This document shows, in pieces, positions 13,670-64,000 of a DNA stretch of 64,000 nucleotides. Each line of letters begins with the position of its first letter. Within the stretch, counting starts at the first letter, position 1. Under the pieces are notes generated by a model. That model saw only the letters and a program-made list of their open reading frames with translations. It searched no databases and was not told the DNA's origin. The DNA is from an uncultured Candidatus Saccharibacteria bacterium (GTDB taxonomy: Bacteria; Patescibacteriota; Kazan-3B-28): NCBI GenBank assembly GCA_964434605.1, contig CAYSVM010000001.1, forward strand, positions 54,011 to 118,010, written 5' to 3'. Both the position numbers and the translations under genes were made by a program.

Positions 13670-13682
13670 TAGGTTATATTAC

Positions 13683-42197: not shown

Positions 42198-42533
42198 ATG
42201 AAAAATTGGCTTCGCGCAACAACAGCACTGGCCTCCTCCGCCATTTTTATGATCCGACCGGCTTTTGCCCAGAATGCACCTGTAATTGAACCGATACAAG
42301 GAGGTGGAATAGAGACCATTATCGATGCTATCCAGAATGTCATTAACTGGATGCTTATGATCGCTGGTGTTTTGGCAGTTGCCTACTTGGTTTATGCTGG
42401 CATTATGTACATTACTGCACCAGGAGGAAAAACTGATACAGCTAAGAACATGATTATCAATGCCATCGTTGGTATCGTCATCATCACGCTATCTTACGTT
42501 ATCGTAAACACCGCAATGAGCCTTATGGGCTAA
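42198..42533 (+). CDS. VirB2/TrbC-like T4SS pilin
   Basis: Signal peptide 'ALASSAIFMIRPAFAQ', then two TM helices separated by a short Gly/Lys loop, total 111 aa. This is the canonical VirB2 topology. A terminator follows. Confidence 0.6.
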   Translation: MKNWLRATTALASSAIFMIRPAFAQNAPVIEPIQGGGIETIIDAIQNVINWMLMIAGVLAVAYLVYAGIMYITAPGGKTDTAKNMIINAIVGIVIITLSYVIVNTAMSLMG

Positions 42534-42558: not shown

Positions 42559-42586
42559 GGCCGCCCTTCTCGGGCGGTCTTTCTTT
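42559..42586 (+). terminator. Rho-independent terminator after the pilin gene
   Basis: ggccgccc-ttctc-gggcggtc hairpin followed by tttcttt. Confidence 0.55.
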
Positions 42587-42675
42587 GGCGGAGGCGACAG
42601 GATTCGAACCTGTGAGGGGCCTAAGCCCCAACCGGTTTTCGAGACCAGCGCCATCAACCGCTCGGCCACGCCTCC
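42586..42675 (-). tRNA. tRNA-Ser (CGA)
   Basis: Reverse complement is GGAGGCGTGGCCGAGCGGTTGATGGCGCTGGTCTCGAAAACCGG...AGGTTCGAATCCTGTCGCCTCCGCCA. Long variable arm, anticodon loop cU-CGA-aa, CCA encoded. Confidence 0.85.
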
Positions 42676-42689
42676 GTATTCATTGTAAT

Positions 42690-43151
42690 CTACCTTTTCC
42701 GAAGATCTCGGAAAAATCCTTTCATCAACTCCGCTACCGTACCGTCATTCTTCATTCTCTGGCAATGCAATCTAGGAAAGAGCTTATTCAACTGCATCCT
42801 AGACATTTTGCTTTCTACTGAACCAAATGATGGATCGGCTAGCAAATAATAGACGTTTTTTACTCTTGCATTACCCAATGCACCTAGACACATCAAACAT
42901 GGCTCGAGTGTCACATACATACTCGCCCCTTCTATCCGCCAATCTCCAATCTTCTTTTGGGCTTGTCTTAAGGCAACCAATTCGGCATGCATCAATCCAT
43001 CCTTTTTTGTGTGGGTTTGGTTGAATCCTCGACCAATAACCTTACCTTTGGTGTCCACCATTACCGCACCAACAGGAACTTCTTTTTTCGCTAAAGCCTT
43101 CCGTGCTTCACGGATGGCTAGCTGAAAGTATTGCAGATGAGTATCCACCAT
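42690..43151 (-). CDS. tadA: tRNA-specific adenosine deaminase
   Basis: CDA-fold zinc motifs 'HAELVAL' and 'PCLMCLGAL'. 153 aa. Confidence 0.9.
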   Translation of the reverse strand: MVDTHLQYFQLAIREARKALAKKEVPVGAVMVDTKGKVIGRGFNQTHTKKDGLMHAELVALRQAQKKIGDWRIEGASMYVTLEPCLMCLGALGNARVKNVYYLLADPSFGSVESKMSRMQLNKLFPRLHCQRMKNDGTVAELMKGFFRDLRKR

Positions 43152-43163
43152 ATATATACCAGC

Positions 43164-43253
43164 TGGCGGAGAGGGCGGGATTCGAACCCGCGATACCCTT
43201 GCGGGTATAACACGTTAGCAGTGTGCCGCTTTCGACCACTCAGCCACCTCTCC
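43164..43253 (-). tRNA. tRNA-Ser (GCT)
   Basis: Reverse complement is GGAGAGGTGGCTGAGTGGTCGAAAGCGGCACACTGCTAACGTGTT...GCGGGTTCGAATCCCGCCCTCTCCGCCA. Long variable arm, anticodon loop cU-GCT-aa. One A:C mismatch in the anticodon stem as I folded it. CCA encoded. Confidence 0.75.
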
Positions 43254-43330
43254 TGGCGCGCCCGAAGGGAGTCGAACCCCCGACCTTCTGGTCCGTAGCC
43301 AGACGCTCTAATCCACTGAGCTACGGGCGC
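43254..43330 (-). tRNA. tRNA-Arg (ACG)
   Basis: Reverse complement is GCGCCCGTAGCTCAGTGGATTAGAGCGTCTGGCTACGGACCAGAAGGTCGGGGGTTCGACTCCCTTCGGGCGCGCCA. Anticodon loop cU-ACG-ga, CCA encoded. It is directly abutting tRNA-Ser(GCT). Confidence 0.85.
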
Positions 43331-43341
43331 ATCTTTTCTGG

Positions 43342-43815
43342 CTACAGTTTGAAGAATCGGCCAATCCTATCCACAGGATCTTCCCCCCGACTGGCATCTT
43401 CTGGCAAGAACTTTCCCAAAATTTCCCTTATCTTTTCCACATCCACGTCGCCTATTTGTAAAGTCAACAACAATCCGAACTTCCTATTTGGCAATATATT
43501 CACAACTCTCGCCTCTTGTCCCAACACAATCCAAAACAACTTCAGCTTACTATATGGGTATACCCTCCCACCAACCTCCACGCCCGTTTCCAGAATGCGA
43601 TGCCAAAAAGTTCTTGGTTGGATTCTCCGTAAAAGATATATCACCAATCCCACCATTACTACCACCACTAGTGTCACCCATTGCCCAACCCATGCTGTCC
43701 ATATTGCAGCTACTAGCAAGAATGCCAAAGTCCAGCCACTCCAGCCAGCCGTACTCCCCCCAGAAAACTCGGGGGCTTCCCACTCGTATAAGATTTTTTG
43801 ATCCTCTTGGTTCAT
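43342..43815 (-). CDS. Small membrane protein (hypothetical) nested between tRNA genes
   Basis: 157 aa with two TM helices 'WTLAFLLVAAIWTAWVGQWVTLVVVVMVGLVIYLL' and a soluble C-terminal domain. Other ORFs in this interval on the plus strand overlap tRNAs and are rejected. Confidence 0.5.
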   Translation of the reverse strand: MNQEDQKILYEWEAPEFSGGSTAGWSGWTLAFLLVAAIWTAWVGQWVTLVVVVMVGLVIYLLRRIQPRTFWHRILETGVEVGGRVYPYSKLKLFWIVLGQEARVVNILPNRKFGLLLTLQIGDVDVEKIREILGKFLPEDASRGEDPVDRIGRFFKL

Positions 43816-43835
43816 GTTGTCTATATTATACCTTC

Positions 43836-43925
43836 TGGCGGAGGCGACAGGATTCGAACCTGTGAAGAGCTTGCACCCTAACTAGTTTTCAAGACTAGCG
43901 CCATAAACCACTCGGCCACACCTCC
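43836..43925 (-). tRNA. tRNA-Ser (TGA)
   Basis: Reverse complement is GGAGGTGTGGCCGAGTGGTTTATGGCGCTAGTCTTGAAAACTAG...AGGTTCGAATCCTGTCGCCTCCGCCA. Long variable arm, anticodon loop cU-TGA-aa, CCA encoded. Confidence 0.85.
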
Positions 43926-43950: not shown

Positions 43951-45996
43951 TTAAAACCCTATGTGTACAAAGTTCTTATAGGTAACCTTGTCTGTCTTTT
44001 CTCCTGATAAAACAGAAATCCCCGTTCCGCTAAAGATATCGTGCATTCCGTCTAATACGGCATATAGGCCCAATGGAGCAGAAGTTAGCGCTACGTCCAG
44101 ACCAATATCTTGCGCTCGACCGAGCCAGGAATCACTGGTATATACGAATATGGTAGCGGCCTTACTAAAAACCCCGTTATCTATAGGTAGATCCATAAAA
44201 TGCCAATCCTTTTCGTCTATTACACCATCTTTCCCCGTATTATCAAAACCCACTCCACCTTCAGCCACTGCCACCGCTCCATTCGGAAAAACATCTAAGT
44301 CAGCAACCCCGTTATCTAAATCATCTTCAGGACTGTAGACAATTATCTGTCTTACCATGAGATCTGAATTCCAATCATTTGGTGCTACTGCTAGTTCTGC
44401 TGGCATTCGCTCCAAGTCCAAAACCAATTGACGAATATTCTGCCGTGCTTCATATGCCTTCCATAAAGAACATTTGTTCTTCGTCGATCCTTGCCACCCC
44501 ACCATGTTTGCTACTTGCATCATTCGAAAAGTCATCTGCAATCCATCATGCAGAGTCTGCATCAATTCTTCGTCCTTCCATTCAAGCACCCTGCCACGAG
44601 TCTTTTCTCGAACTGCCTTCAACTTCTCCAGCGCATCTTCCGCATATACCACTGTTTGTGCATGAATCCCCGAGTCCAAACCTTGGGCGGACATAATCTT
44701 TAGATTGTTTATCATAATGTCCAGAGCACTCCCCACCTTCCCAAACCATGTTTCGGGATCATCGACAAGCGCTTCCATCTCATTTCTATACACCTCATTT
44801 TTATCTGCCTTTTTTGCAATACCAAACAAAGCCACACCGCCTTCGTAAGCTGTTTTGCTATCAACCTGCAACTGTTCGTAAATCGGTCTTATTATATCTT
44901 GACTCGCCACTTCCTGCCAACTTACTTTAACTGGAGCATTATTCCTCATATCCCCGTCATTATCCCTAAAACATGCCTTAGCCAGTCCATTGCTTATCCG
45001 CCCAATTTGGCTAATCCCCAATCCTTGTCCGGTTTCATATGCACTCTGCGCATCCAAGAGTTCTTCTGTTTGGTCCGCAAGCGCAATTCCCGCAATCTTT
45101 ACCGCCGCCTTTCGCCTTGTAGCAGAAGGACCATTACTAGTGCTAATTTTTATTCCAATTACTCCATCTCTTTTTTCCCATTTTTCTCCCAAATATTTTA
45201 GGGTTGTCATGATTCGCCAATCCAGATTCATTGTCATTCTCCCATCCACCTCTCTCCATTCAATATCTTTTTCTAATCCGTTTTCAAAGACCAATACTCC
45301 ACTATTTTTTAGCCTCATCACTTCTCCGGCCAAAACTTGGTGTTTGGGATCTTCATAGTCCATTTCTATTGGGAAAGAACCACCACCTTCATTGAAAGCT
45401 TTGTGTGCTACTCCACCGAATTGGAAAAATAAGGCTATTACGATAACAATTATTAAAGCAACTAGCACTATTATCCAAAAATATGGATTCGACATTAAAG
45501 CCTTCAGGGCTATCCCTGTCGTCCTCGCTGTCGCTGCTGCTTTTTCAGCTTGCTGCGCTCTCTTTTGAGCAAGACGAATTTTTTGTTGTACCTGTCTTAT
45601 TCTATTCGCAGCATCTTGGACATGTTCAGGCCCAGATTGTTCGCCTTTCTCTTTTCCATTTTTCTGCTGTTTTTTATTCTTCGGCTCTTCTTCCTCTTCT
45701 TCCGGTTCTTCCTCTGGTTCTTCCTCTGGTTCTTCTTCCGGTTCTTCATCTAGCTCTCTTTCGACATCATCCAGTTTATTTTGCACTTTGCGTTTCAGGT
45801 TTTCTGCTAAATCATCACTCCCCTCATCCCTGTACCTAGAGGCCTCCTCCCACTGCTTCCCAACTTCATCCAACACTTCTAGTAATCTATCCACAACTTT
45901 CTGAGACAAGTTCTTAGCCAAAAGCAAATCTTTGACTCGTTGTTGCAGGTGGGCAATTTTCTGTCTTAACGATTTTTCTTTTTCTTCTTCAGCCAT
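43951..45996 (-). CDS. Large bitopic membrane protein: N-terminal cytoplasmic coiled coil with acidic EPEEE repeats, one TM, large extracytoplasmic domain of about 480 aa (hypothetical)
   Basis: 681 aa. '(EPEEE)n' runs, TM 'YFWIIVLVALIIVIVIALFF', and no catalytic motifs recognised in the C-terminal domain. Confidence 0.55.
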   Translation of the reverse strand: MAEEEKEKSLRQKIAHLQQRVKDLLLAKNLSQKVVDRLLEVLDEVGKQWEEASRYRDEGSDDLAENLKRKVQNKLDDVERELDEEPEEEPEEEPEEEPEEEEEEPKNKKQQKNGKEKGEQSGPEHVQDAANRIRQVQQKIRLAQKRAQQAEKAAATARTTGIALKALMSNPYFWIIVLVALIIVIVIALFFQFGGVAHKAFNEGGGSFPIEMDYEDPKHQVLAGEVMRLKNSGVLVFENGLEKDIEWREVDGRMTMNLDWRIMTTLKYLGEKWEKRDGVIGIKISTSNGPSATRRKAAVKIAGIALADQTEELLDAQSAYETGQGLGISQIGRISNGLAKACFRDNDGDMRNNAPVKVSWQEVASQDIIRPIYEQLQVDSKTAYEGGVALFGIAKKADKNEVYRNEMEALVDDPETWFGKVGSALDIMINNLKIMSAQGLDSGIHAQTVVYAEDALEKLKAVREKTRGRVLEWKDEELMQTLHDGLQMTFRMMQVANMVGWQGSTKNKCSLWKAYEARQNIRQLVLDLERMPAELAVAPNDWNSDLMVRQIIVYSPEDDLDNGVADLDVFPNGAVAVAEGGVGFDNTGKDGVIDEKDWHFMDLPIDNGVFSKAATIFVYTSDSWLGRAQDIGLDVALTSAPLGLYAVLDGMHDIFSGTGISVLSGEKTDKVTYKNFVHIGF

Positions 45997-47454
45997 CTAG
46001 ATTTTCATTACAAAAATTCCTGTTGTTGTAGTCAACATTAGCATTTTCCCGATGGAACTGTATTCCATGGAGTTTATTTGCAAATTAGTTTCCTGCCCCA
46101 CAAATGGGATCATAGTCCTATCTCCGTTGTTTATATTTATTCTAATAAAAGTCTGATTTGGAGCTACTATTAAAATTTCGTCTGCACTCAACCAAGTGAT
46201 AGGTGTGCTTGTTGATGCCAACTCTCCTTTTTCAACTATCTCCGACTGAGCCGTTGCAAATTCATATGTTTTCAGTTGCATCTTCCCCTCTATCTCTACG
46301 ACATATGCGAGTTTCGCACCATCCGAAGAAATAGCATACTGACTTCCGGCAACTCTGTCCTGAACTATCTCGGAAATAGATTTCGCCACCAAGTCTACAA
46401 GCAACAATTTTCCCGCAGATTCTATAAGCAAATACCTATCATCTGCACCCCAGATCATTTTAGGGTTATCCAGTTGAGGCAAGTCAACAATTACTCGCTC
46501 CCACTCTTCTCCACTAGGAAGTGCCCGTACAAGAGAGTATTCCCCATCTGCAGTATCGTAGATATATAGTATCTCCGCCCCATCGTTGCTGTATGCCACC
46601 TGTCTAATACTTTCATTAAGCGCAACTGGCTGCCACCCACTAGATGTTTTTAGACTGTCATCAAAGAACCACGTACTAGTCCCTATATATTTAGAAGCTC
46701 CTTGGGTTGGCCGTTCTCCCAAAACAATATATCTCCCTCTAACCTGCCTATTATCTTGCATATTCTTGAGTTTCAGTTGGCCAGTAAGCTTCACTAACGC
46801 CGCTTGTGTCACCGGAGACCAAGTAATGTCACCCACCCCACTAAAACTTCCCCTAAAGAGAGAAGCAACCTTATTTTCCGTGGTACTCGAAGACTTAAAA
46901 CTACCATCTATTGGATCGTAATATGCGACTTCTAGCCCATTGCGATTCAACCGTGGATAAACAACATTGCCTTCTACCAATTTATCTATACTAGGTATAG
47001 GTAGAAGCCCTAGATTTAATAGGATCTTGTCGCCCCGAACAATCTCAATCGTCTTCTCAAGTTCCAGAAAACCATCTTTTGTTAAACCAAGAATATGCTT
47101 ACCTGCTTTAAGCTTTACAACATATCCTGTGTCGATCGTTCCATATGGTTTGTTATCAATTTTTAGCCCAACCGCTGCTTCATTTAGTTCAAAAGTCACT
47201 TCTCCCACATTGAATTTCAACCCCAAGAGCAAAAAGTAACCCGTCCCAAAGACCAGAATTGCAGCAAACAGACTAATCCCTATCGCCTGCCAATTAATTC
47301 GAGTCTGTTTTTTGGGAACACGGTTAGAAAAATTCAAATTTATACCCACTCCTTTAGTAGGAGCAGGTTTTCCTCTGCTCTGTCGTAATAATTCCGCTAA
47401 TTGTTGTTCTGGCGTTTTTTCGCCCCCAGACTGGCTAATTTGCTCATCTGCCAT
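45997..47454 (-). CDS. Membrane-anchored PEGA-like and beta-propeller (TolB-like) protein
   Basis: 485 aa with N-terminal TM 'IGISLFAAILVFGTGYFLLLGL', a PEGA-like beta-sandwich 'YVVKLKAGKHILGLTKDGF', and repeated 'SxDGxxLxYxxD' propeller blades. Confidence 0.55.
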   Translation of the reverse strand: MADEQISQSGGEKTPEQQLAELLRQSRGKPAPTKGVGINLNFSNRVPKKQTRINWQAIGISLFAAILVFGTGYFLLLGLKFNVGEVTFELNEAAVGLKIDNKPYGTIDTGYVVKLKAGKHILGLTKDGFLELEKTIEIVRGDKILLNLGLLPIPSIDKLVEGNVVYPRLNRNGLEVAYYDPIDGSFKSSSTTENKVASLFRGSFSGVGDITWSPVTQAALVKLTGQLKLKNMQDNRQVRGRYIVLGERPTQGASKYIGTSTWFFDDSLKTSSGWQPVALNESIRQVAYSNDGAEILYIYDTADGEYSLVRALPSGEEWERVIVDLPQLDNPKMIWGADDRYLLIESAGKLLLVDLVAKSISEIVQDRVAGSQYAISSDGAKLAYVVEIEGKMQLKTYEFATAQSEIVEKGELASTSTPITWLSADEILIVAPNQTFIRININNGDRTMIPFVGQETNLQINSMEYSSIGKMLMLTTTTGIFVMKI

Positions 47455-47550: not shown

Positions 47551-47579
47551 TTGACAAAATACGATTTTTTTGATAAAAT
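47551..47579 (+). promoter_or_regulatory. Near-consensus sigma-70 promoter (extended -10) upstream of the VirB6-like gene
   Basis: TTGACA (47551-47556), a 17-nt spacer, then TG-n-TAAAAT (47571-47579). About 28 nt upstream of ATG 47608. The ORF track's TTG start at 47551 coincides with the -35 box and is unlikely to be a real start. Confidence 0.5.
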
Positions 47580-47607: not shown

Positions 47608-50163
47608 ATGAAGCGCTTCATTAGTTTTATTACCTCTCTTAGAAATATCAAACGCCCACAACTTATCTTGGGTGGTCTTTTAGTAACCACAACTGTCATT
47701 ACAACCCTAATTGCTTCTCCCGCTTACGCATTCACCTTAAGTCCCGCAGCTGCTGCCGCAGGCATCCTAACAAATCTGTTCCTTTCTGTAGGCGAACTAA
47801 TCCAATGGGCATCTGTCCTGTTTCTTAGCCTGATTATCAATGTTATCTTACCCGGCCAGAACAGCCTTATCTTTGGAGAACAGGTATTTACTGCATGGAG
47901 AACCATGCTTGATCTTACTAACATCGTTTTCTTCCTAGCACTCTTTATCTTCGCTATTTTCATCATCACTCGTAATGCCGGCTACAACTTCAAAAAAGCT
48001 GTTATCGCACTTATTACCGCCATTGCCCTAGCCAATCTAAGTTTAGTTATCGTCCAATTACTAATTGAAATGGGTGATGCCTTACGAAATTTCAGTAGCC
48101 TTATCCCCGCCTTTGGAATGCAAGGAGGAGACACTACTCAACTGAGGGAGTGGCTACATGGACTGGTTTTGCCAAAAGACTTCAATCTTGAGGCTGCTTC
48201 TAAAGATGTTTGGGATATAGTATGGGTAGCTTTTCAAGTAATGGCCGCCCAAGCTATCATCGCCTACGTTCTATTCCGCCTAATGTTCGTACTAGTCGAA
48301 CGTGCTATCCGTTTGGCAATTTTAGCTATCTTTGGACCAATCCAAGCTGCAATTAGTGTTCTACCTCAAAAAGAACTCCAAGGACTAGGTAGCAACTGGT
48401 TCGGAGATGTTTTGCGCTGGGTTCTAGTTCTCCCCCTCTCCTTTATTCTTATCGGCATTGCCCGTCTAATCATGCCAACCAAAAGCGCTGCAACTCTTGA
48501 ATCATTTCTAAATCAAGCCCAAAAAGATGGAGGCACTCTAACTGGAACTGAAGAGCTGTTTCTTCTCATAATCGGCCTCGGAGTCCTTGTCGCTGCATCT
48601 TCTGTTCCAACAATGTTAAAGGTCCCAGTTTCTGCCCTCACCAACATGTTACCTAACTACGTAGGAAAAGCTGGCAAGGATTTAGGAAAAGCTGTTGGCA
48701 AAGGTATTTGGAATAATGTTAAGGCTAGGGGTAAACATATGGCCTTCAAGGTCGGAAGAAATATACCTGGCTATCGTTGGGTAGCCGGTAAAATTGCCGA
48801 TCGCAAACGAGAAGTCGACGCTCAAGCAAAACAACGCGCTTCCTTTGCCGACAAAGCCGCGCGCGACCGCGCTGTTAGTCGATACAACAAGAATAATCAA
48901 AGACTTGAAGGTAATATTAAAATCCAGCTCGAACAAGAACCCGGAGCCAAGCAACATGGTGGCTTTGATGCTTGGTTAGCCGCAGACCCAACAGCAGCCA
49001 AAGCTGCTAAAAACAGAATTAAAGATAGAGCCGAAAAGAGTGATCTCGGACTCGCCGTTGATGCAGACAACAAAGCATACATGGCCGCTATTATGGATGA
49101 GGTTGAGTCTGAATCCAAGAAAGACCGTAATGCAGGTGAACAAAAAGATGCTATCAATGAGCTAATTGAAAAAATTAAAAGCAACCCGAACGATAACGAC
49201 GCAAAAATGAAGCTATCAGCCATGCTTATACTCTTGAAACGCGAAACTAACAGAACGGGAGCTGGACGCAAGGACGCTATAGAAGCATTTGACGATGTAA
49301 TTGAGAAAAATAGCCTAGAAGACAAGGAAAAACGTTCCAAACTCGGTATCCATAACAAAGTAAATCTTAATCCGGTAGGAAAAAGCAAAAAAACCTCTGG
49401 TGTAGATGACGCAGAAAAAGATATAAACCATATGGCCAAAGTCCAAGTGGAACTTAAAGGCCTAGAAGAACTCAAAGAAGCTTTTAAAAACGGATTGTCT
49501 TTACCAAATAAACTGATGGACTTTCAGATGACAAACTTCAAAGATTCCAAAAAACAAGAACGAGTCGACGCTATTCTTGACAGCCCTCACGCAACCCAAG
49601 AAGAAAAAGCTGGAGTGGTAGCTAAGACGCTGGAGATAGGAAGGGAGCTTGCCCAGGCCATCGTGGGTGCAAATCTTCGTGGAGACGATTTGGGTAGAAT
49701 GTCTGATCAAAACGCCCTCGGCACTTCTTTGGAGGATTTCCTCAAAACCACTGTTGATGGTCGCATACAATCTAAGCGATCTGAACTTAATAACATCAGG
49801 GAAACTGTCGCTACAAAAAGCGCCGCTCAACCAGGAATGAAAGTAATTAAAGACACTGTTGCCAGCCTTGATCCTTCTGATATCAGCGAGCTTAGTAATA
49901 ACCTTAAAGAACTTGGAGACATTATCTCCTTAGTTCTTGCCCAAGGACACAGTGATACCGCGGTAAATGAATTGCCTCAGATTAACCAAGATCAAATTGG
50001 AGAACTTATAAATAAAATAGAAAACGGACTTAAACTCCCAGGCGGAACTCTTAGTAACAATGGGGAGAACGCACTAAATAGGTTAAACCAGACTTCAATT
50101 GGTATATATAAAATTCTCCGCGACCAGAGCGGTACATACACTGATCTTCGTGATGCAATATAA
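47608..50163 (+). CDS. VirB6/TrbL-like polytopic T4SS channel protein with a long hydrophilic C-terminal extension
   Basis: N-terminal 330 aa or so with at least 6 TM helices in a TrbL/VirB6-like arrangement, then about 520 aa of charged, Lys/Asp/Glu-rich soluble domain. Confidence 0.65.
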   Translation: MKRFISFITSLRNIKRPQLILGGLLVTTTVITTLIASPAYAFTLSPAAAAAGILTNLFLSVGELIQWASVLFLSLIINVILPGQNSLIFGEQVFTAWRTMLDLTNIVFFLALFIFAIFIITRNAGYNFKKAVIALITAIALANLSLVIVQLLIEMGDALRNFSSLIPAFGMQGGDTTQLREWLHGLVLPKDFNLEAASKDVWDIVWVAFQVMAAQAIIAYVLFRLMFVLVERAIRLAILAIFGPIQAAISVLPQKELQGLGSNWFGDVLRWVLVLPLSFILIGIARLIMPTKSAATLESFLNQAQKDGGTLTGTEELFLLIIGLGVLVAASSVPTMLKVPVSALTNMLPNYVGKAGKDLGKAVGKGIWNNVKARGKHMAFKVGRNIPGYRWVAGKIADRKREVDAQAKQRASFADKAARDRAVSRYNKNNQRLEGNIKIQLEQEPGAKQHGGFDAWLAADPTAAKAAKNRIKDRAEKSDLGLAVDADNKAYMAAIMDEVESESKKDRNAGEQKDAINELIEKIKSNPNDNDAKMKLSAMLILLKRETNRTGAGRKDAIEAFDDVIEKNSLEDKEKRSKLGIHNKVNLNPVGKSKKTSGVDDAEKDINHMAKVQVELKGLEELKEAFKNGLSLPNKLMDFQMTNFKDSKKQERVDAILDSPHATQEEKAGVVAKTLEIGRELAQAIVGANLRGDDLGRMSDQNALGTSLEDFLKTTVDGRIQSKRSELNNIRETVATKSAAQPGMKVIKDTVASLDPSDISELSNNLKELGDIISLVLAQGHSDTAVNELPQINQDQIGELINKIENGLKLPGGTLSNNGENALNRLNQTSIGIYKILRDQSGTYTDLRDAI

Positions 50164-50173
50164 CTAAAATAAT

Positions 50174-50710
50174 ATGGCAGTAAAAATCCCACAAGATGTT
50201 ACCCGTGAAGATAAGCTGATTGGTCCGCTTACCTTAAAGCAGTTCCTTTATTTACTTGCCGGTAGCTCAATCATCTTCATCACCTACCAATCCACTATGA
50301 GCTGGCTCTTATTTATCGTTGTCAGCCTCATCGTAGGTATCCTGTCCCTCTTACTTGCATTCGGAAAGATCAACGGCCGTCCCTTTGGTGTATTCCTGCT
50401 AAACCTACTTCACTTTATTCGTTCATCCAAGAATTTGGTTTGGCACAAAGAACATCGAGCTAAAGTAAAGAACATAAAAGTAAGTGCTTCGGATATCAAA
50501 GACACAAAAACAGAACTTGCAGATCGTCAGTCTGGAAAACAAATCAAAATGCAGATCGAACAGCTCGCCCATATCCTAGATACGGGTGGTACAATGAACA
50601 GTGAACAAACAGAATTTACTGCTACATCAATCAGCACTATTACTCCCCCAAAAACCACAGTCGAACCTACCGACATCGAAGATGTACTTAAAGATGTTGA
50701 CCAATCCTAA
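50174..50710 (+). CDS. VirB3/PrgI-like small membrane protein
   Basis: 'DKLIGPLTLKQFLYLLAGSSIIF' followed by a second TM. This matches the PrgI/VirB3 family pattern, and it sits immediately upstream of VirB4. Confidence 0.55.
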   Translation: MAVKIPQDVTREDKLIGPLTLKQFLYLLAGSSIIFITYQSTMSWLLFIVVSLIVGILSLLLAFGKINGRPFGVFLLNLLHFIRSSKNLVWHKEHRAKVKNIKVSASDIKDTKTELADRQSGKQIKMQIEQLAHILDTGGTMNSEQTEFTATSISTITPPKTTVEPTDIEDVLKDVDQS

Positions 50711-50716
50711 ACCAAT

Positions 50717-51394
50717 ATGGCACGCAAACAACCAAAATTCAAAAGTACCCAACAGTTCCTTCCTGTCCAAGAAATTAGGGATGGGATAGTGGTCTTAAAA
50801 GGCGGTGGATACCGTACAGTGCTAATGGTCAACGCCATTAACTTCAGCCTGAAATCAGCAGACGAACAACAGGCCTTACTAAACAGCTACCAGAACTTTC
50901 TCAATGGTCTTTCTTTCCCTATCCAAATCGTGATGCAATCTCGCACACTCGACCTAACCAACTACCTAACCAGCCTCGAACAAGCAGCTAGTAAGCAGAC
51001 TAACGACTTGCTTCGTACCCAAACAAACGAATACACCACTTTTGTTCGCGATCTTGTTGGGGTTGCCAACATCATGAGCAAAACCTTTTACGTAATCGTC
51101 CCCCACAACGAGATGCCCCTACTTACCGGTGGATTCCACCTATTTGGAAAAAAGAAAAGCTCTCCTAGCCGTCAGTTTGAGGAAATAAAAACTGCTATGA
51201 GCGAAAAAACCAACCTCATCTCAAGCGGACTAGCTAGTCTAGGATTAAACAATGTTCAACTAAATACCCAAGAGCTAATCGAGCTTTTCTATACCAGCTA
51301 CAACAGTGATTCTGCTCGTCGGCAAAAGCTCTTTTCCGTAAGCAATGTCGATGCTTCTATTATCCGTAACGTAAAAGATGCGGAGGCCCAATAA
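50717..51394 (+). CDS. Stand-alone VirB4 N-terminal-domain-like protein
   Basis: 225 aa. 'FLPVQEIRDGIVVLKGGGYRTVLMVNAINFSLKSADEQQALLNSYQNFLNGLSFPIQIVMQSR' resembles the N-terminal region of VirB4/TraE-type ATPases. Its stop overlaps the next ATG (TAATG). Confidence 0.5.
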   Translation: MARKQPKFKSTQQFLPVQEIRDGIVVLKGGGYRTVLMVNAINFSLKSADEQQALLNSYQNFLNGLSFPIQIVMQSRTLDLTNYLTSLEQAASKQTNDLLRTQTNEYTTFVRDLVGVANIMSKTFYVIVPHNEMPLLTGGFHLFGKKKSSPSRQFEEIKTAMSEKTNLISSGLASLGLNNVQLNTQELIELFYTSYNSDSARRQKLFSVSNVDASIIRNVKDAEAQ

Positions 51395-53184
51395 TGTTCG
51401 GAAGAAAAAAGAAAATTCAGACTGCCGAAGAACAAGCTGCTAAGAAAGCGGCGGAGAGTTTTGAAAGCGGTCTTGTTTCTGTCCGCGACCTTATCGCCCC
51501 TACTGCCATGGAGATCAAAAACGACCGTCTACTTCTAAACGGCAAGTTTGTCCGCAGTTTCTTCGTGTTAACCTACCCTCAATATATCGAGACCAATTGG
51601 CTCGCTCCCCTAATAAACTACGACGTCAATATAGATATTTCAATGCACATCTATCCCGTAGACAACGCAAACATTATGCGTGTCTTGCGTCGGAAAGTAA
51701 GCGAAATGGAATCGTCTCTTCGCATCAACGAGGAAAAAGGAGCCATCCGCGATCCTGAACTGGAGATTGCCTATAACGATGCCGAGGAGTTACGCGATCG
51801 CCTCCAAAGAGGTATCGAAAAGTTCTTCCACTACGCCCTATACTTCACCATCTATGCCTCCAGCGAAGAAAAGTTAGACAGCGTAACCAGCCATATTGAA
51901 ACGACCCTTGGTGGCCAACTGGTTTACACCAAACAGGCACTGCTGCAAATGGAACAAGGATTTAATTCTAGCCTTCCTCTTGGTCTAGACGAACTAAATG
52001 TTGTCCGAAACATGACCACATCTTCAGTAGGGACCACTTTCCCCTTCACCTCAGTCGATCTCACTACTGGAAAAGGTGTCCTGTATGGTATCAACCGACA
52101 CAACAATTCCCTCATCCTCTTCGATCGATTCGAGTTAGAAAACGCCAACATGGTAGTCTTTGCCAAATCTGGTGGTGGTAAATCCTATGCCATTAAACTA
52201 GAGGTTCTCCGTAGCATGATGTTCGATACTGATGTTATCGTTATCGATCCCGAGAACGAATACAAAGCTTTAGCAGATGCTGTTGGAGGCAGTTACATTT
52301 CAGTGAGTTTGAATAGTGAAAAACGAATTAATCCATTTGACTTACCCAACCTTGGCACCAATGCTGATGGGGAAAAAGTTCTCCGCGCTTCCGTTATTAC
52401 CCTCATGGGCTTAATGAACCTAATGCTTGGCAAACTCACTCCAGAAGAAGAGGCTCTAATGGAAAAAGCGCTAATGGAAACCTACGCCTTGAAGGACATT
52501 ACTGGAGATATCAAGACCCACCAGAATCCTGCCCCAACAATGCAAGACCTATACAACGTTTTGGGAAATATGACTGGTGCAGAAAGCCTGGCCTTGCGTC
52601 TAACCAAATACACCACAGGAACCTTTGCCGGTGTCTTTAACCAACCGACAAACTTTGAATTAGATCGCGGTCTAATGGTCTTTTCTATCCGTGACTTGGA
52701 AGACACTCTCCGACCAATCGCTATGTATGTTGTCCTAAACTACATTTGGAACAAGATTCGTTTCAATATGAAGAAGCGAATGCTGGTAATAGACGAAGCT
52801 TGGATTCTTATGCAGTACGAAGACTCTGCCAAATTCCTTTACTCCATCGCCAAACGTGCCCGTAAATATTACCTCGGACTCACCACAATCACCCAGGATA
52901 TCGAAGACTTCTTGGGCTCCAAGTACGGCAAAGCAGTTGTGGCAAACTCTTCGCTACAGTTACTTCTGCGCCAATCCCCCGCCTCTATCGACATAGTTGC
53001 AGAAACCTTCAACCTTACCCAAGGAGAAAAATTCCTTCTACTTGAATCAAATGTTGGTGAAGGTCTATTCTTCGCTGGTACCAACCATGCTGCCATCAAA
53101 GTGGTTGCCAGCTACATTGAAGACCGTATTGTTACTTCGGATCCCAGTCAGCTAGCAGAACTTCGTAACCTCACAGGAGGTTAA
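51394..53184 (+). CDS. virB4: Type IV secretion ATPase VirB4 (CagE/TrbE/TraE family)
   Basis: N-terminal 'LLLNGKFVRSFFVLTYPQYIETNWLAPLIN...DISMHIYPV', Walker A 'VVFAKSGGGKSY', and Walker B 'MLVIDEAW'. 596 aa. Confidence 0.85.
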   Translation: MFGRKKKIQTAEEQAAKKAAESFESGLVSVRDLIAPTAMEIKNDRLLLNGKFVRSFFVLTYPQYIETNWLAPLINYDVNIDISMHIYPVDNANIMRVLRRKVSEMESSLRINEEKGAIRDPELEIAYNDAEELRDRLQRGIEKFFHYALYFTIYASSEEKLDSVTSHIETTLGGQLVYTKQALLQMEQGFNSSLPLGLDELNVVRNMTTSSVGTTFPFTSVDLTTGKGVLYGINRHNNSLILFDRFELENANMVVFAKSGGGKSYAIKLEVLRSMMFDTDVIVIDPENEYKALADAVGGSYISVSLNSEKRINPFDLPNLGTNADGEKVLRASVITLMGLMNLMLGKLTPEEEALMEKALMETYALKDITGDIKTHQNPAPTMQDLYNVLGNMTGAESLALRLTKYTTGTFAGVFNQPTNFELDRGLMVFSIRDLEDTLRPIAMYVVLNYIWNKIRFNMKKRMLVIDEAWILMQYEDSAKFLYSIAKRARKYYLGLTTITQDIEDFLGSKYGKAVVANSSLQLLLRQSPASIDIVAETFNLTQGEKFLLLESNVGEGLFFAGTNHAAIKVVASYIEDRIVTSDPSQLAELRNLTGG

Positions 53185-53186
53185 TT

Positions 53187-54458
53187 ATGCGTCCTGTAAG
53201 CGTAATTGGTGTTGTCTTTTGGGGAACAGTTGGAATCCTAACACTCATCGCAGTACTGACTGTTACTTTTACAAGAGAAACTACGGGAATCGAGGAGCGT
53301 TGGGGAAGCCGAACAGCAGAAGAGCGCCAAACAGACCTACTCGACCCCATCTCCATTTTAGCCAAGAATAAAAACTACCAATCAAACGTTAGTGGCAACA
53401 AAAGCATTCGTCCAACCGGTTCGTCTGATCACGACAACGACGGCCTTACCAATGATATAGAAATCTCCCTAGGAATTGACCCTGCCAATCCCGACACAGA
53501 CGGAGATGGAGTATTAGATGGTATCGAAAAGGAACTTGGAACAAATCCCAACGATCCAAAAGAAGGTGGACTTGCTCCGGTACCCCAAACCACAACGCCA
53601 ACCTCTACCCCAAACCAACTTGTTATCACCCGCCTCTCCAAGACAGCCATCGTTGGTGGTCGGCCAGTGCACTTCGTCACTCTTCCCGTAGGAAGTACTA
53701 TTCAATTCCGTATTCGAGCAGAAGCAACAAATTTGGGTGGAAGCCACACCTTAGTACTTGAAGACAAAATTCCCAACTCTTTCCATGACTTTACCGGAAC
53801 CATTCAGGTGAATAATTCACCAACCTCAAAAATAACCAAAAATTCGCTTAGTCGATATGTAATTAGAGTTAGCCCTAATACCCAAACAGTTGTTGTAGAA
53901 ATCAACTTCTCAGTTACTGCCACCGCCGTTGGCAATTGGGAAAATATCGCCAACATCTACAAGCCAAACGAGTTAGACGGCCTGTCCGACAAGGTGTATC
54001 TCCGCATTACTAATCCAAAAAGTTACACCACCCAGCCTCCAGCCAGCTGCACCATCTGTAATCTCTTCTTACTCGGTCGTGCCAACAAAGATGAAGCATG
54101 GGGCACTAGAATATTTGCCGAAACAAATACCCAACTAGACTTCTATATCTCCATTGAAACATCAAATCTTGAAAGCGAAACCAAAACTTTTTCCATAAAA
54201 GACGTACTCCCCTCCGGACTCAAATACGTCCCTGGCAGTGGCAAAGTTTTTTACGATAACCGCTCCACTCCCAAACAGCTCCCCGATACCTGGATAACAG
54301 ACTACAATCTCACCACTACGCATAAAACCAACCGATTTGAGCTCTACTTTTCTGCTACAGTAGAAACAGACGCTCCCTTCGCTCTAACCAACAATACTGA
54401 GGTAGTTAGTTGGGATGGCAAATCTTATCAATCTAGCGTAAAAGTAAACTCCAAATAA
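53187..54458 (+). CDS. Secreted/surface protein with thrombospondin-type-3-like Ca-binding repeats and a DUF11-like repeat domain
   Basis: N-terminal TM or signal sequence, then 'DHDNDGLTNDIEISLGIDPANPDTDGDGVLDG' (DxDxDG repeats), then beta-rich repeats. SD 'ggagg' sits 7 nt upstream. Translationally coupled to virB4. Confidence 0.55.
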   Translation: MRPVSVIGVVFWGTVGILTLIAVLTVTFTRETTGIEERWGSRTAEERQTDLLDPISILAKNKNYQSNVSGNKSIRPTGSSDHDNDGLTNDIEISLGIDPANPDTDGDGVLDGIEKELGTNPNDPKEGGLAPVPQTTTPTSTPNQLVITRLSKTAIVGGRPVHFVTLPVGSTIQFRIRAEATNLGGSHTLVLEDKIPNSFHDFTGTIQVNNSPTSKITKNSLSRYVIRVSPNTQTVVVEINFSVTATAVGNWENIANIYKPNELDGLSDKVYLRITNPKSYTTQPPASCTICNLFLLGRANKDEAWGTRIFAETNTQLDFYISIETSNLESETKTFSIKDVLPSGLKYVPGSGKVFYDNRSTPKQLPDTWITDYNLTTTHKTNRFELYFSATVETDAPFALTNNTEVVSWDGKSYQSSVKVNSK

Positions 54459-54460
54459 CC

Positions 54461-56113
54461 ATGACCAACCAAGCCCCTCATCCCCAGAACGAAGACGATG
54501 CCCCAATGGAGCAGTTTGTAACCACCCTCCAACGAAGGAAGGAAGAAGAATATACCCAGAAAAAAGCATCTGAACTAAACCTCACTTACCAAAACTTGGT
54601 TGGCTTCCAACCCAACCCATCTGCTGTCAGTATTGTCCCCAAAGACCTTGCCCATTCCGCCAATATCTTTGCATATGAAAAAGACGGAACCGTTATTTCC
54701 CTTGCGCTTTCAAATCCCGAAGATCCCACGACCATAGACGCCCTAAAGAAGCTTTCTGCACTAGATGAATTTGAATTCAAACCAGTATTAGTCTCTTCTT
54801 CTTCAATGAAATACCTACTAGGAATCTATGACACCTTTTCTCCTACTCAAACTAAAGTCGATGATATAAATATCGATACCAAGCTACAAGAAAAGTTTTC
54901 CAAACTAACTAATCTAAAAGAGCTTCAAACAGCTCTCACTACCGCCTCAACCAGCGAACTAACTGAAACTATCTTTGCTGGTGCTATTGGTTTAAATGCT
55001 TCCGACATTCATATCGAGCCCACCAAAGAAGGTGTTCGTCTACGCTTCCGACTCGATGGCGTCCTCCATGATATTACCGAGCTTCCCTTGGACCGGTTAG
55101 ATACTCTAACCAACCGTATCAAAATGCTATCCCAACTGAAACTCAACCTCACTGAAACCGCCCAAGATGGACGTTTCTCTATCCACACCCCCAAAGGAAC
55201 CTATGATATCCGTGTCTCAATCCTTCCCACCCAATACGGAGAATCTGCTGTTCTACGTCTACTTCCCCAAGAAGGAAGTTTTATTAACTTGGATAAGATT
55301 GGTTTTTCTCCCGAAGTAAAACAATGGGTAGACTCAGCCATTCACGAACCCAACGGCCTTATCCTAAACACCGGTCCCACTGGTTCCGGTAAGACCACCA
55401 CCCTTTATGCAATCCTGAATACCATCAATAAGCCAGATTCAAAAATCATTACCGTAGAAGATCCTGTAGAATACCGTCTTGAAGGAATTACCCAAACCCA
55501 AGTCAATGTAGAAGAAGACTATACTTTTGCCAACGCTCTTCGTTCTATCGTCCGCCAAGACCCAGACATTATTTTAGTTGGAGAAATTCGTGACAAAGAA
55601 ACTGCCAACATTGCAGTAGACGCCGCACTGACTGGACACCTTGTCCTCTCCACCCTACACACCAATGACGCTGCCGGTGCTGTTCCCCGGCTAGTAGAAC
55701 TTGGTGCCCAACCAAAGCTATTCTCCGACGCTCTTCGTCTTATTATCGCCCAGAGGTTGGTTCGTCGTCTTTGCCCTAAATGCAAAGAAGCATACTCACC
55801 CAAAGGCGCGGAGTTAGAAAAAATAAAATCCATCTCCCCTTCCACTCTCCCCAAAACTATCTACCGTCCCAAAGGATGCGATGCCTGCAATGGAACGGGG
55901 TACCATGGCCGTATCGGCATCTTCGAAGTGTTACGAATCACTCCAGAGATAAAAGAAGCTATCAATGAAGGCAAGGGTGCAGCTGAACTCGCCCAACTAG
56001 CTATTTCCCAAGGAATGATTACACTCGCCCAAGATGGACTAGCTCGAGTAATTGAAGACACAACCTCTCTAGATGAATTGCTTCGGGTTGTCGGAGGAAA
56101 CAAAACCAACTAA
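54461..56113 (+). CDS. GspE/PilB-type secretion ATPase (type II/IV secretion, type IV pilus assembly family)
   Basis: GSPII_E_N-like N-domain, Walker A 'GPTGSGKTTTLYA', Asp box 'VEDPVEY', Walker B 'ILVGEIRD', His box 'LSTLHTNDA', and C-terminal tetracysteine 'CPKC...CDACNGTG'. Confidence 0.9.
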   Translation: MTNQAPHPQNEDDAPMEQFVTTLQRRKEEEYTQKKASELNLTYQNLVGFQPNPSAVSIVPKDLAHSANIFAYEKDGTVISLALSNPEDPTTIDALKKLSALDEFEFKPVLVSSSSMKYLLGIYDTFSPTQTKVDDINIDTKLQEKFSKLTNLKELQTALTTASTSELTETIFAGAIGLNASDIHIEPTKEGVRLRFRLDGVLHDITELPLDRLDTLTNRIKMLSQLKLNLTETAQDGRFSIHTPKGTYDIRVSILPTQYGESAVLRLLPQEGSFINLDKIGFSPEVKQWVDSAIHEPNGLILNTGPTGSGKTTTLYAILNTINKPDSKIITVEDPVEYRLEGITQTQVNVEEDYTFANALRSIVRQDPDIILVGEIRDKETANIAVDAALTGHLVLSTLHTNDAAGAVPRLVELGAQPKLFSDALRLIIAQRLVRRLCPKCKEAYSPKGAELEKIKSISPSTLPKTIYRPKGCDACNGTGYHGRIGIFEVLRITPEIKEAINEGKGAAELAQLAISQGMITLAQDGLARVIEDTTSLDELLRVVGGNKTN

Positions 56114-56167
56114 GTGCTATACTGGAACCAGAGGTGAAAGGGGCGGAATCTCAACCGCTTTTCTTTT

Positions 56168-56863
56168 ATGCCAAAGCTTCGTCACTTATTTCTGGGTATG
56201 ATTTTTCTCGGCCTTATCGTTGCCGAGGCTGTTCCCGTACTAACCAAACTCTCCTCTCCCGCCCAATCTGAGCGCCAACTCACCGCAGAAGAACAAAACA
56301 CCATTCTCTCTATCTTACAAAAACCAGAGGACAGTTCCTCTTCTACTTTTACTGGAAAATTTTTAGATATTAGTTGGCCACTTGATCCAAACCAAGTAAA
56401 AAAAGATGTCATCATGTCTTCGACCATGATGGGAAGTCCCCAACTAAATCAAGTAGCCTCTCCTGTTCAAACTCCCGACGACAGTCTTACTGGCATCCTT
56501 CCTCCAATCAACAGCGACCTGTATTACGCCTACCAAGATGGCGGTAGGTTTTGGTATGGCCAAGGTAGCAATATTTTAGTTATCTTCCCTAACGAAAGTA
56601 TCCGCAGCTTCAATAAAGCAACCGGAGCGGAAACCATGTGGATGCAAGATCGTCTTGCCTATCCCCCAATCAGTGACCCAACAGCATACACCAACTACCA
56701 ACAAAACTACCGCGCATTAATTGTTGCCGAAACTACTCAGTGGGTGTTAATGGAATTCCCTTCCGGGGGAATAGTCAAAGTCTACAAACCGCAATACACC
56801 GCCTCGGGAGGTAGTGGCAGTGTTTCTTCTCTTCCCAGCTTCTTGTTTAACTTGATCGACTAG
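56168..56863 (+). CDS. Hypothetical secreted or membrane-anchored protein (size and topology compatible with a VirB8-like component, speculative)
   Basis: 231 aa with an N-terminal hydrophobic anchor 'LFLGMIFLGLIVAEAV' and a soluble domain with no motifs. Confidence 0.45.
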   Translation: MPKLRHLFLGMIFLGLIVAEAVPVLTKLSSPAQSERQLTAEEQNTILSILQKPEDSSSSTFTGKFLDISWPLDPNQVKKDVIMSSTMMGSPQLNQVASPVQTPDDSLTGILPPINSDLYYAYQDGGRFWYGQGSNILVIFPNESIRSFNKATGAETMWMQDRLAYPPISDPTAYTNYQQNYRALIVAETTQWVLMEFPSGGIVKVYKPQYTASGGSGSVSSLPSFLFNLID

Positions 56864-63275: not shown

Positions 63276-64000
63276 ATGGCAAAAAAGAAATTGGTACTAA
63301 TAGACGGCAACTCCCTTGTGCATCGAGCATTCCATGCCTTCTCCCGCGCCGAACTAACCTCCCCTAGTGGACAACCTACCGGTGCTATCTATGGCTTTGC
63401 TGTGATGCTTATAAATATCTATACCAAACTCAAACCCGATTACATCGCGGTTGCTTTTGACACCGAAGCACCAACCTTCCGCCACAAAGAATATGTTGAA
63501 TACAAGGCCACTCGTATCAAAGCCCCACAGGAACTCTACGACCAAATCCCCGAAGTGCAAGCACTGCTGGAAAGTTTCAATATTCCAATTTTTCTTAAAG
63601 ACGGTTTTGAAGCCGATGATATTATCGGCACTCTCGCCAAACAAGCACCGACCGATATCAATACCTACATCGCTACCGGTGATATGGACGCCCTCCAACT
63701 CGTAAACAACCATACTTTTATTTACGCCCCGCGCAAAAGTTTTTCGGACATTACCACCTACACTCCTGAAGACGTTTTTAAAATTAAAGGAATCAAGCCA
63801 GAACAGGTTGTCGACTTCAAAGGACTACGAGGAGATCCTTCAGACAATATCCCAGGGGTTGCAGGTATCGGCGAAATAACTGCCCTAAAGCTTTTGCAGG
63901 AATTTGGTACTATCGAAAAAATCTACAAAAATCTAGATAAAATTTCCCCAACCACTGCCGAGAAACTAAAGAAAGATGAGAAAAACGCTATTAAAAGCCA
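63276..64000 (+). CDS. polA: DNA polymerase I, N-terminal 5'-3' exonuclease domain (partial, runs off the window)
   Basis: 'KLVLIDGNSLVHRAFHA', '...GFEADDIIGTLA...', and H3TH 'KGLRGDPSDNIPGVAGIGE'. The ORF is open to the end of the window. Confidence 0.85.
   Translation, partial: MAKKKLVLIDGNSLVHRAFHAFSRAELTSPSGQPTGAIYGFAVMLINIYTKLKPDYIAVAFDTEAPTFRHKEYVEYKATRIKAPQELYDQIPEVQALLESFNIPIFLKDGFEADDIIGTLAKQAPTDINTYIATGDMDALQLVNNHTFIYAPRKSFSDITTYTPEDVFKIKGIKPEQVVDFKGLRGDPSDNIPGVAGIGEITALKLLQEFGTIEKIYKNLDKISPTTAEKLKKDEKNAIKS

Follow-up and report, generated by a model that had tools for sequence, protein, structure and literature searches.

A 64-kb stretch of chromosome from a bacterium of the Kazan-3B-28 lineage of Patescibacteria (contig CAYSVM010000001.1; "the window" is used below for the whole stretch of 64,000 nucleotides that was analysed) carries, at positions 54461-56113 of the plus strand, a gene whose product is predicted to be a catalytically intact, hexamer-forming motor ATPase of the PilB/GspE family, with all the motifs that this implies. 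In the window genome the gene appears, from its position and junctions, to belong to the transcription unit of a type IV secretion system (T4SS), and this arrangement is conserved in one class-level lineage, here called Kazan. The ATPase is part of a larger set of patescibacterial proteins, called group A below, of which the genes are not linked to that of the platform protein PilC. The explanation that we tentatively favour, while regarding it as a little short of probable, is that an orphan motor of a type IV filament machine, with one conserved function throughout its subfamily, was captured into the T4SS operon. What is new is the occurrence of a PilB-family ATPase in a patescibacterial T4SS locus and the existence of a large pilC-uncoupled subfamily with a diagnostic motif change. 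No mention of PilB, GspE or T2SSE proteins in patescibacterial T4SS clusters is made in PMC12102498, in the Southlakia genetics study PMC10633639 or in a T4SS review of 2025, and a literature search for PilB together with VirB4 in Patescibacteria gave nothing, so that the linkage is, as far as found, apparently undescribed.

The motor ATPase

The open reading frame starts with ATG and encodes 550 amino acids. Its assignment to the PilB/GspE family of hexameric ATPases, and within that family to group A, draws on Pfam and NCBIfam matches, motifs, an orthologue alignment and trees. The T2SSE domain (PF00437) covers residues 163-542 with an E-value of 3.5e-122, and the N-terminal MshEN/GSPII_E_N domain (PF05157) is found at residues 40-120 (E = 4.7e-7; 30.1 bits, cutoff 23.1). 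All four catalytic motifs of the PilB/GspE clade are present, as Walker A (GPTGSGKTT, residues 305-313), Asp box (IITVEDPVE, 329-337), an atypical Walker B (DPDIILVGEIRD, 367-378) and His box (TGHLVLSTLH, 391-400); in addition, the C-terminal domain (CTD) contains a tetracysteine zinc motif formed by CPKC (438-441) and CDAC (473-476). The arginine fingers of Geobacter PilB, R271 and R286 (PMC5424180), align to R251 and R266 in the N2D of the window protein, and both are invariant in 18 orthologues. Although these orthologues are only 47-93% identical to the window protein, the alignment has 141 invariant columns, among them those of both arginine fingers, of Walker A and B and of the Asp and His boxes, and this conservation of catalytic residues indicates purifying selection on the ATPase. 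Some orthologues (P0052, P0064 and the protein of locus L172) keep the catalytic motifs but have a degraded tetracysteine motif that lacks two or all of its four cysteines, which suggests that zinc binding is dispensable in part of the Kazan lineage.

An earlier note on this DNA, made from the letters alone, had recognised a GspE/PilB-type ATPase with secretion-ATPase motifs, a GSPII_E_N domain and paired CxxC motifs, and had preferred PilB/GspE to VirB11; the Pfam matches and motif positions bear out the first point and comparison with solved structures the second. The closest of these are Geobacter PilB (375 bits), Thermus thermophilus PilF (350 bits) and GspE/EpsE (about 320-330 bits), whereas PilT scores 125 bits and VirB11 (HP0525) 38 bits. 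Among the NCBIfam models the GspE model TIGR02533 ranks first with 492 bits, below its equivalog cutoff of 630.25, and the PilB model TIGR02538 follows with 483.1 bits, likewise below its cutoff of 675.65. The VirB11 model TIGR02788 gives 58.8 bits against a cutoff of 249.95, and the presence of both the N-domain and the cysteine motif also speaks against VirB11 membership. Scores with the DotB and TraJ models are 81.8 bits (cutoff 463.3) and 101 bits (cutoff 368), respectively.

Position in a T4SS operon

The window is chromosomal, and the locus is surrounded by housekeeping genes (rpoD, dnaG, clpC, dnaE, leuS, trpS, valS, tsaD, murE). On the plus strand a promoter-like site is followed by genes for VirB6-like, PrgI, TrsD, VirB4 and adhesin-like proteins and for PilB, then by a hairpin and the gene for a protein of 231 amino acids (p231), after which valS is convergent. 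The promoter-like site (47551-47579, plus strand; TTGACA-17-TAAAAT with an extended TG) lies in the divergent intergenic region, has 11 of 12 consensus matches, is the best of the region scanned and likely marks the start of the T4SS transcription unit. The mechanically assigned TTG start of the VirB6-like reading frame, at 47551, coincides with this site (TTGACA-17-TGATAAAAT); given the promoter, the true start is probably the ATG at 47608 (MKRFISF...). The VirB6/TrbL-like product (47608-50163, plus strand) is a polytopic membrane protein of which the C-terminal half is long and hydrophilic; no Pfam family matches the window copy, and the VirB6 assignment is made only through positional orthologues that match PF19590 (TrbL_3). 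On the same strand follow a PrgI/VirB3-like protein (50174-50710; PF12666 PrgI, E = 9.7e-10), a TrsD/TraC-like homologue of the N-terminal part of VirB4 (50717-51394; NCBIfam models of VirB4 N-terminal regions and TrsD, with orthologues matching PF26593, TraC-like) and an MPF_FATA-like VirB4 ATPase of the CD1110 family (51394-53184; NF045971, E = 2.9e-117, 392.9 bits, cutoff 325; PF19044, E = 8.2e-26).

The earlier note had described the ATPase as translationally linked to VirB4. Its place in the T4SS unit stands, but the two genes are separated by that of a membrane-anchored adhesin-like protein of 423 amino acids (53187-54458, plus strand; PF18884, E = 1.1e-8), with a gap of 2 nucleotides at each junction. 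This protein has a TSP3 repeat and weak isopeptide/DUF11-type domains (TIGR04226, 3e-6, under its cutoff). Together with VirB4 upstream and a small anchored protein downstream, which is p231 (56168-56863, plus strand), it makes up the flanks as they had been described. A terminator-like hairpin with T-run (56139-56162, plus strand; 8-pair stem with 4 GC pairs), identified by consensus match only, is located within the 54 nucleotides between the PilB and p231 genes; terminator-like sites are only mildly in excess in the region (22, against 14.3 with a standard deviation of 3.6 in shuffled sequences).

A gene for a VirB2/TrbC-type T4SS pilin of 111 amino acids, with a signal peptide and two transmembrane helices, is located further upstream (42198-42533, plus strand; PF18895 T4SS_pilin, E = 1.2e-8, 35.3 bits, cutoff 26.6; PF04956 TrbC, E = 1.4e-7). 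With a monoderm-type VirB4, TrsD, PrgI, this VirB2-like pilin and VirB6 (the latter through orthologues only), the locus has the composition of an MPF_FATA-like T4SS. Neither a relaxase nor a coupling protein was detected among the cluster genes scanned with Pfam and NCBIfam. As the earlier note had stated, no platform protein is nearby: hidden Markov model (HMM) searches find no PilC/GspF in the 64-kb window. The ATPase is also the sole T2SSE-family match in the window, which therefore lacks PilT as well. PilM, PilN, PilO, prepilin peptidase and prepilins with a class III signal are absent from the window, and a prepilin motif of the G|FTLIE type occurs in none of its six frames.

Conservation within the Kazan-3B-28 lineage

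An identical block surrounds PilB orthologues that share 71, 61, 53, 51 and 49% identity with the window protein, and in some Kazan loci overlapping stop and start codons or 2-nucleotide junctions run along the T4SS-PilB unit. About 43 contigs, some of them only 7.7-14 kb long, carry both PilB and VirB4 orthologues, where pairing was judged by equal longest-contig sizes in the two orthologue lists, and a VirB4-anchored metagenome scan gave three further Kazan-type loci. The T4SS core adjoins PilB in all Kazan-lineage loci examined, and the association with a T4SS on which the earlier note had depended is thus found in relatives too.

A deeper relative, locus L172 (2364-21641), has a different layout. 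With respect to the window, its ValS is 49%, its VirB4 66-67% and its PilB 48% identical, and in the PilB none of the four zinc-motif cysteines is left. The genes for PilB and a p231 homologue are here divergent from a series encoding VirB6, PrgI, TraC, VirB4, an M23 protein, a PEGA protein and a protein of 1625 amino acids, followed by a T4SS_pilin-domain protein of 385 amino acids. Judged from gene order, a single inversion of the T4SS core would relate this layout to that of the window. The layout suggests that the proximity of PilB and the T4SS predates their fusion into one operon, and that co-transcription is not universal. At the deepest nodes of the Kazan lineage VirB4 is 70-76% identical, compared with 49-53% for PilB and 54-67% for ValS, so that constraint on Kazan VirB4 is unusually strong in comparison with the other two.

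The p231 family comprises 35 proteins, all from Kazan-type contigs. Its gene is always directly downstream of that of the Kazan PilB, and a homologue is paired with PilB in the rearranged L172 as well. The protein has a conserved, beta-rich C-terminal domain, modelled by AlphaFold2 with a predicted local distance difference test score of about 90 for residues 110-210, for which a fold search with the model gave no significant match. An invariant glutamate, Glu20, is situated within the single transmembrane helix in the context G-L-I-x-A-E and superficially resembles the Glu at +5 of prepilins. A role as pilin, with the N-terminal G-LIVAE as prepilin signal and this Glu at +5, was considered and rejected, since the hydrophobic helix left after cleavage would be too short. 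Because the protein has almost no cytoplasmic portion, it is not expected to act as a cytoplasmic docking adaptor either.

A PilC-unlinked subfamily

For comparison, a reference set of at least 80 non-Kazan PilB/GspE loci from many phyla, about 15 of them from Patescibacteria, was collected with the patterns GHLVLSTLH and GLILNTGPT. Among the 80 loci listed, PilC/GspF is encoded just downstream of the ATPase in 55, and none has T4SS genes within 10 kb. Adjacency to PilC is divided sharply: it occurs in 0 of 19 group A loci as opposed to 55 of 73 others, again among the loci listed (Fisher p = 7.7e-10).

In a neighbour-joining (NJ) tree of the ATPase core (384 columns, simple distances, 200 bootstraps, PilT as outgroup) the Kazan ATPases cluster with the PilC-unlinked ATPases of other Patescibacteria at 78% bootstrap, and the PilC-adjacent patescibacterial PilBs join the classical PilB/GspE proteins of other phyla. 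The grouping with ordinary type IV pilus (T4P) PilB that the earlier note had considered as the outcome contrary to its proposal is thus not found in the NJ trees. The Kazan branch is not lengthened, and this lack of acceleration suggests that the ancestral function was kept. A larger NJ tree of 199 sequences, with uncertain rooting, has one stable split that keeps all 62 classical or PilC-linked sequences together on the same side (bootstrap mean 61.5 of 62). Monophyly of group A, which had 78% support in the smaller tree, was lost in the larger one with PilT rooting, and only the unrooted split is claimed here; PilT joins the tree on the side of group A, which may therefore form a grade and not a clade.

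Group A also has a diagnostic change in sequence. The classical motif (D/N)IAE(K/R)R-PQDGR is replaced in group A by LK(L/I)N....QDGR, with loss of the Glu and the Arg, and the window ATPase has LKLNLTETAQDGR instead of AE(K/R)R before PQDGR. Further group A substitutions are found at K328, Y354 and L414. In an exhaustive search of 1.84 billion cluster representatives, about half of the 150 nearest representatives have the group A motif, including 14 tandem fusions. Group A occurs in three architectures, namely full-length proteins, proteins of about 432 amino acids without the N-domain, and tandem double ATPases of about 1,000 amino acids. The short form, in which the GSPII_E_N domain is absent and the CxxC pairs are kept, is encoded at L015:9953-11251, L018:9953-11248, L024:9905-11200 and L038:9980-11284. 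The tandem fusions, of about 980-1,047 amino acids, come from Parcubacteria and Moranbacteria (L011:10001-13111, L013:9887-12916 and L014:8116-11169; proteins P0276-P0288); in each, one chain holds a complete PilB unit and, behind it, another ATPase core, and clustering at 50% identity gives at least 14 clusters with this architecture. Three such chains together could imitate a hexamer. We know of no earlier description of tandem-fused PilB-like proteins. So far group A has been found only in Patescibacteria, a statement that applies to the loci of known source.

Outside the Kazan lineage, seven of eight group A loci (L011, L012, L014, L015, L018, L024 and L038, with about 6 kb viewed on each side of the ATPase gene) share the block polA(5'-3' exo)-tsaE-DHH-[ATPase]-ruvB-(LTD)-yebC-ruvC. 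The polA/ruvB neighbourhood may hint at a link with DNA metabolism, or may be plain inherited synteny. DHH and ruvB genes are not found beside the ATPase gene in the Kazan loci; polA is still 8-10 kb downstream (63282-63989 in the window), a position compatible with positional orthology of the group A gene.

T4SS loci of other Patescibacteria

The VirB4-anchored scan also yielded 76 patescibacterial T4SS loci from outside the Kazan lineage, 57 of which have at least 3 kb of downstream sequence and 37 at least 9 kb. A T2SSE gene adjoins VirB4 in none of the 76, so PilB is not a recurrent component of these loci. In the nearest outgroup VirB4 lineages (65-66% identity) a pilin array, VirB6, PrgI, TraC-like and VirB4 genes are followed by genes for peptidoglycan hydrolases, beside dnaN/dnaA; in the two closest of them PilB is missing and the hydrolases occupy its position. 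These loci imply that the patescibacterial T4SS works without an operon-encoded PilB.

In one non-Kazan locus, L114 (12075-21270), which has four VirB2-like pilin genes, a group A PilB-like gene (514 amino acids) is present 8 kb away, convergent with the last T4SS pilin gene at a distance of 22 nucleotides. For a single-copy gene in a genome of 0.6-1 Mb, chance would give about one such case per 40 loci. To judge from its position, the gene may be a neighbour by chance or else represent a second instance of linkage.

Possible functions of the ATPase

According to the explanation that we tentatively favour, the ancestral group A gene would have encoded an orphan ATPase, beside which a T4SS block came to lie in the Kazan-3B-28 lineage. 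The Kazan ATPase would have become paired with the lineage-specific p231 next to the chromosomal T4SS core, and inversion of this core would have put VirB4 and the adhesin gene directly upstream of it. As a result of the inversion, the VirB6 promoter would drive the ATPase gene, the final one ahead of the hairpin. The enzyme itself would act by ATP-driven domain rotation on the membrane platform of a T4P or pseudopilus machine encoded elsewhere, and sharing of an operon would serve co-expression of two host-contact machines rather than the assembly of one chimeric machine. We infer both the partner platform and the lack of direct docking to the T4SS. This explanation agrees with the full-length, PilB-type nature of the protein, with the lack of T4SS linkage of group A elsewhere and with the score of 0 out of 76 non-Kazan T4SS loci having an adjacent PilB. 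T4P components are, moreover, reported to be widespread in Patescibacteria (PMC6744442).

Several observations weigh against it. No pilC, pilM/N/O, pilT or prepilin gene is found within 10 kb of the ATPase gene in about 12 Kazan-lineage loci; the PilC HMM has no match in Kazan loci L001-L008, and the T2SSF family is not listed for L172. Patescibacterial T4P operons carry their own classical-type PilB beside pilC in all eight loci sampled, so that a second, orphan motor for the same machine needs explaining. All 48 classical-type representatives have the E-x-R of the classical motif, whereas group A lacks it, and this loss hints at altered contacts with a partner or between subunits. Finally, the PilB-p231 pair is still found beside the T4SS core in the rearranged L172.

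The strongest competing explanation is that the ATPase is an accessory motor of the T4SS itself, which we consider possible but on the whole doubtful. A PilB-like hexamer would then be the third ATPase of the system, docked beneath VirB4/TrsD or against the cytoplasmic half of VirB6. VirB11 docks in this manner in VirB/D4 systems, and the PilT-like DotB docks on DotO in Dot/Icm systems. As part of the same proposal, the ATPase would help to extract VirB2-type pilins or gate the channel, with p231 as a lineage-specific adaptor. The common transcription unit with its 2-nucleotide junctions or stop/start overlaps fits such a role, as do the adjacency to the core in all Kazan-lineage loci and about 43 contigs and its survival of the core inversion in L172, in which even ValS is only 49% identical. 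The p231 family is found only where PilB adjoins the T4SS, and group A has a divergent motif and is never linked to pilC among the loci listed. Patescibacterial T4SSs, furthermore, have VirB2-like pilins and lack VirB11 (PMC12102498). However, a single internal inversion accounts for the L172 layout without any selection for proximity, and the housekeeping order valS-tsaD-femAB-murE-(SIMPL)-polA beside the locus is conserved equally well, which makes the conserved adjacency weak functional evidence, as it could reflect inherited gene order. An accessory T4SS motor is also difficult to reconcile with the 76 other patescibacterial T4SS loci that lack an adjacent PilB, with the wide occurrence of group A outside T4SS contexts and with a p231 that is nearly devoid of a cytoplasmic portion. 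The earlier note had proposed either a hybrid machine of this kind or a T4P motor with partners encoded elsewhere; its interpretation is partly supported, in that the T4SS linkage in relatives and the separation from PilC-linked PilB fit the former alternative, whereas these 76 loci and the housekeeping blocks in which group A otherwise resides do not.

A broader version, which is unlikely, would make group A the general equivalent of VirB11/DotB in patescibacterial T4SSs, usually encoded away from the cluster like most patescibacterial VirD4 homologues, with the Kazan operon as the single lineage in which the partnership is visible in gene order. The patescibacterial T4SS is essential for epibiotic growth in Saccharibacteria, employs VirB2-like pilins and has no known third ATPase. 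If this version were true, T4SSs would have recruited a secretion-superfamily ATPase independently for the third time, here from the PilB branch.

It is slightly more improbable still that group A has a function of its own, for example in uptake or processing of DNA coupled to recombination, in the manner of ComGA, and that its Kazan location links it with a T4SS itself importing DNA or other macromolecules. The neighbourhood of ruvB, ruvC, yebC, polA and a DHH phosphoesterase in seven of eight non-Kazan loci could be taken in this sense, but these are housekeeping genes and the arrangement may be inherited synteny. In class ABY1, T4SS loci adjoin comF, recG and radA, and most clusters are without a relaxase (PMC12102498). 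The unusual architectures within group A, tandem-fused or lacking the N-domain, would also suit a separate function. On the other hand, no comGB/pilC-like, comEA or comEC gene is nearby, and in Saccharibacteria competence requires comEC whereas the essentiality of the T4SS is independent of comEC (reviewed in PMC12857230). The idea that the gene is in decay, or a remnant without enzymatic activity that persists through its place in the operon, is so improbable as to be negligible, because, despite the loss of the tetracysteine motif in P0052, P0064 and L172, the protein is full-length in all lineages and its pattern of conservation, with 141 invariant columns at 47-93% identity, effectively refutes decay.

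A PilB-family motor in the T4SS operon of a whole class is a concrete candidate, open to testing, for an additional energising part of the system. Should it have no such role, the arrangement suggests that pili and T4SS are co-regulated when the host is contacted. Current genome annotation labels group A merely as "GspE/PilB"; should classical T4P not be driven by these proteins, the numbers of pili genes counted in Patescibacteria overstate what is known.

Other features of the window

Two further conserved genes are found upstream of the core and divergent from it. A conserved membrane protein of 681 amino acids (43951-45996, minus strand) occupies the same position in Kazan loci; it matches no Pfam family and has weak similarity to the protein of 1625 amino acids downstream of VirB4 in L172. 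A protein of 485 amino acids with weak PEGA and beta-propeller matches (45997-47454, minus strand) travels with the T4SS cluster, its orthologues being found in Kazan loci and, in L172, downstream of VirB4. The VirB2-like pilin gene is separated from the remaining T4SS block by a dense cluster (42586-43925) of four tRNA genes (Ser-CGA, Ser-GCT, Arg-ACG, Ser-TGA), a gene for a tadA-like deaminase and one for a membrane protein of 157 amino acids.

At 12575-15023 two neighbouring paralogous genes encode surface proteins of 364 and 446 amino acids that share Ser/Thr-rich Ig-like repeats and an N-terminal anchor (...LLQWLERELC...); a SpoIID-domain protein (36887-39184) contains repeat modules related to these. 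GC skew is negative across the whole window (1-64000), at about -0.15 to -0.33 in nearly all 2-kb bins regardless of gene orientation, and cumulative skew declines steadily to -6.8, a marked compositional asymmetry between the strands.

Comparison with known systems

The best sequence match is with PilB of type IVa pili (Geobacter metallireducens, PDB 5TSG/6OLJ; T. thermophilus PilF), where the 375 bits extend over residues 38-544. The window ATPase has the same domain order, with a GSPII_E_N-type N-domain, N2D and CTD, and the same motifs, arginine fingers and tetracysteine. It differs from PilB in scoring below the equivalog cutoff, in the loss of E-x-R, in its position across the tree split and in being encoded in a T4SS operon with no pilC, pilM/N/O, pilT or pilin gene nearby. 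GspE (Vibrio cholerae EpsE, PDB 1P9R/4KSR) likewise has the tetracysteine zinc motif and an N-terminal domain, but no gspF, gspL or pseudopilin gene is found near the window ATPase, and in a Patescibacterium host, which is monoderm-like, an outer-membrane secretin is not expected (PMC6744442).

VirB11, DotB and TraJ belong to the same superfamily of hexameric ATPases, and the window ATPase is likewise encoded with VirB4 and VirB6. VirB11, however, lacks the PilB N-domain and the zinc motif, both of which are present here; if a hybrid machine does exist, the likeness to these three proteins would be one of functional analogy.

The thin pilus of the IncI1 plasmid R64 is a type IVb pilus with the ATPase PilQ and assists the conjugative T4SS of the plasmid. 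This pilus is cited in PMC12102498. It resembles the present case in that one element encodes both a T4SS and a PilB-family ATPase, with functional cooperation in R64, but the pil operon of R64 is complete and includes platform, pilins and peptidase, whereas at the window locus the ATPase stands alone.

The locus as a whole is comparable to the patescibacterial MPF_FATA-like T4SS (Quinonero-Coronel et al. 2025, PMC12102498; Wang et al. 2023, PMC10633639), which has the same chromosomal core of VirB6, PrgI/VirB3, TrsD, VirB4 and a VirB2-like pilin. The Kazan lineage differs from the nearest T4SS lineages in what comes after VirB4, where the adhesin, PilB and p231 take the place of peptidoglycan hydrolases.

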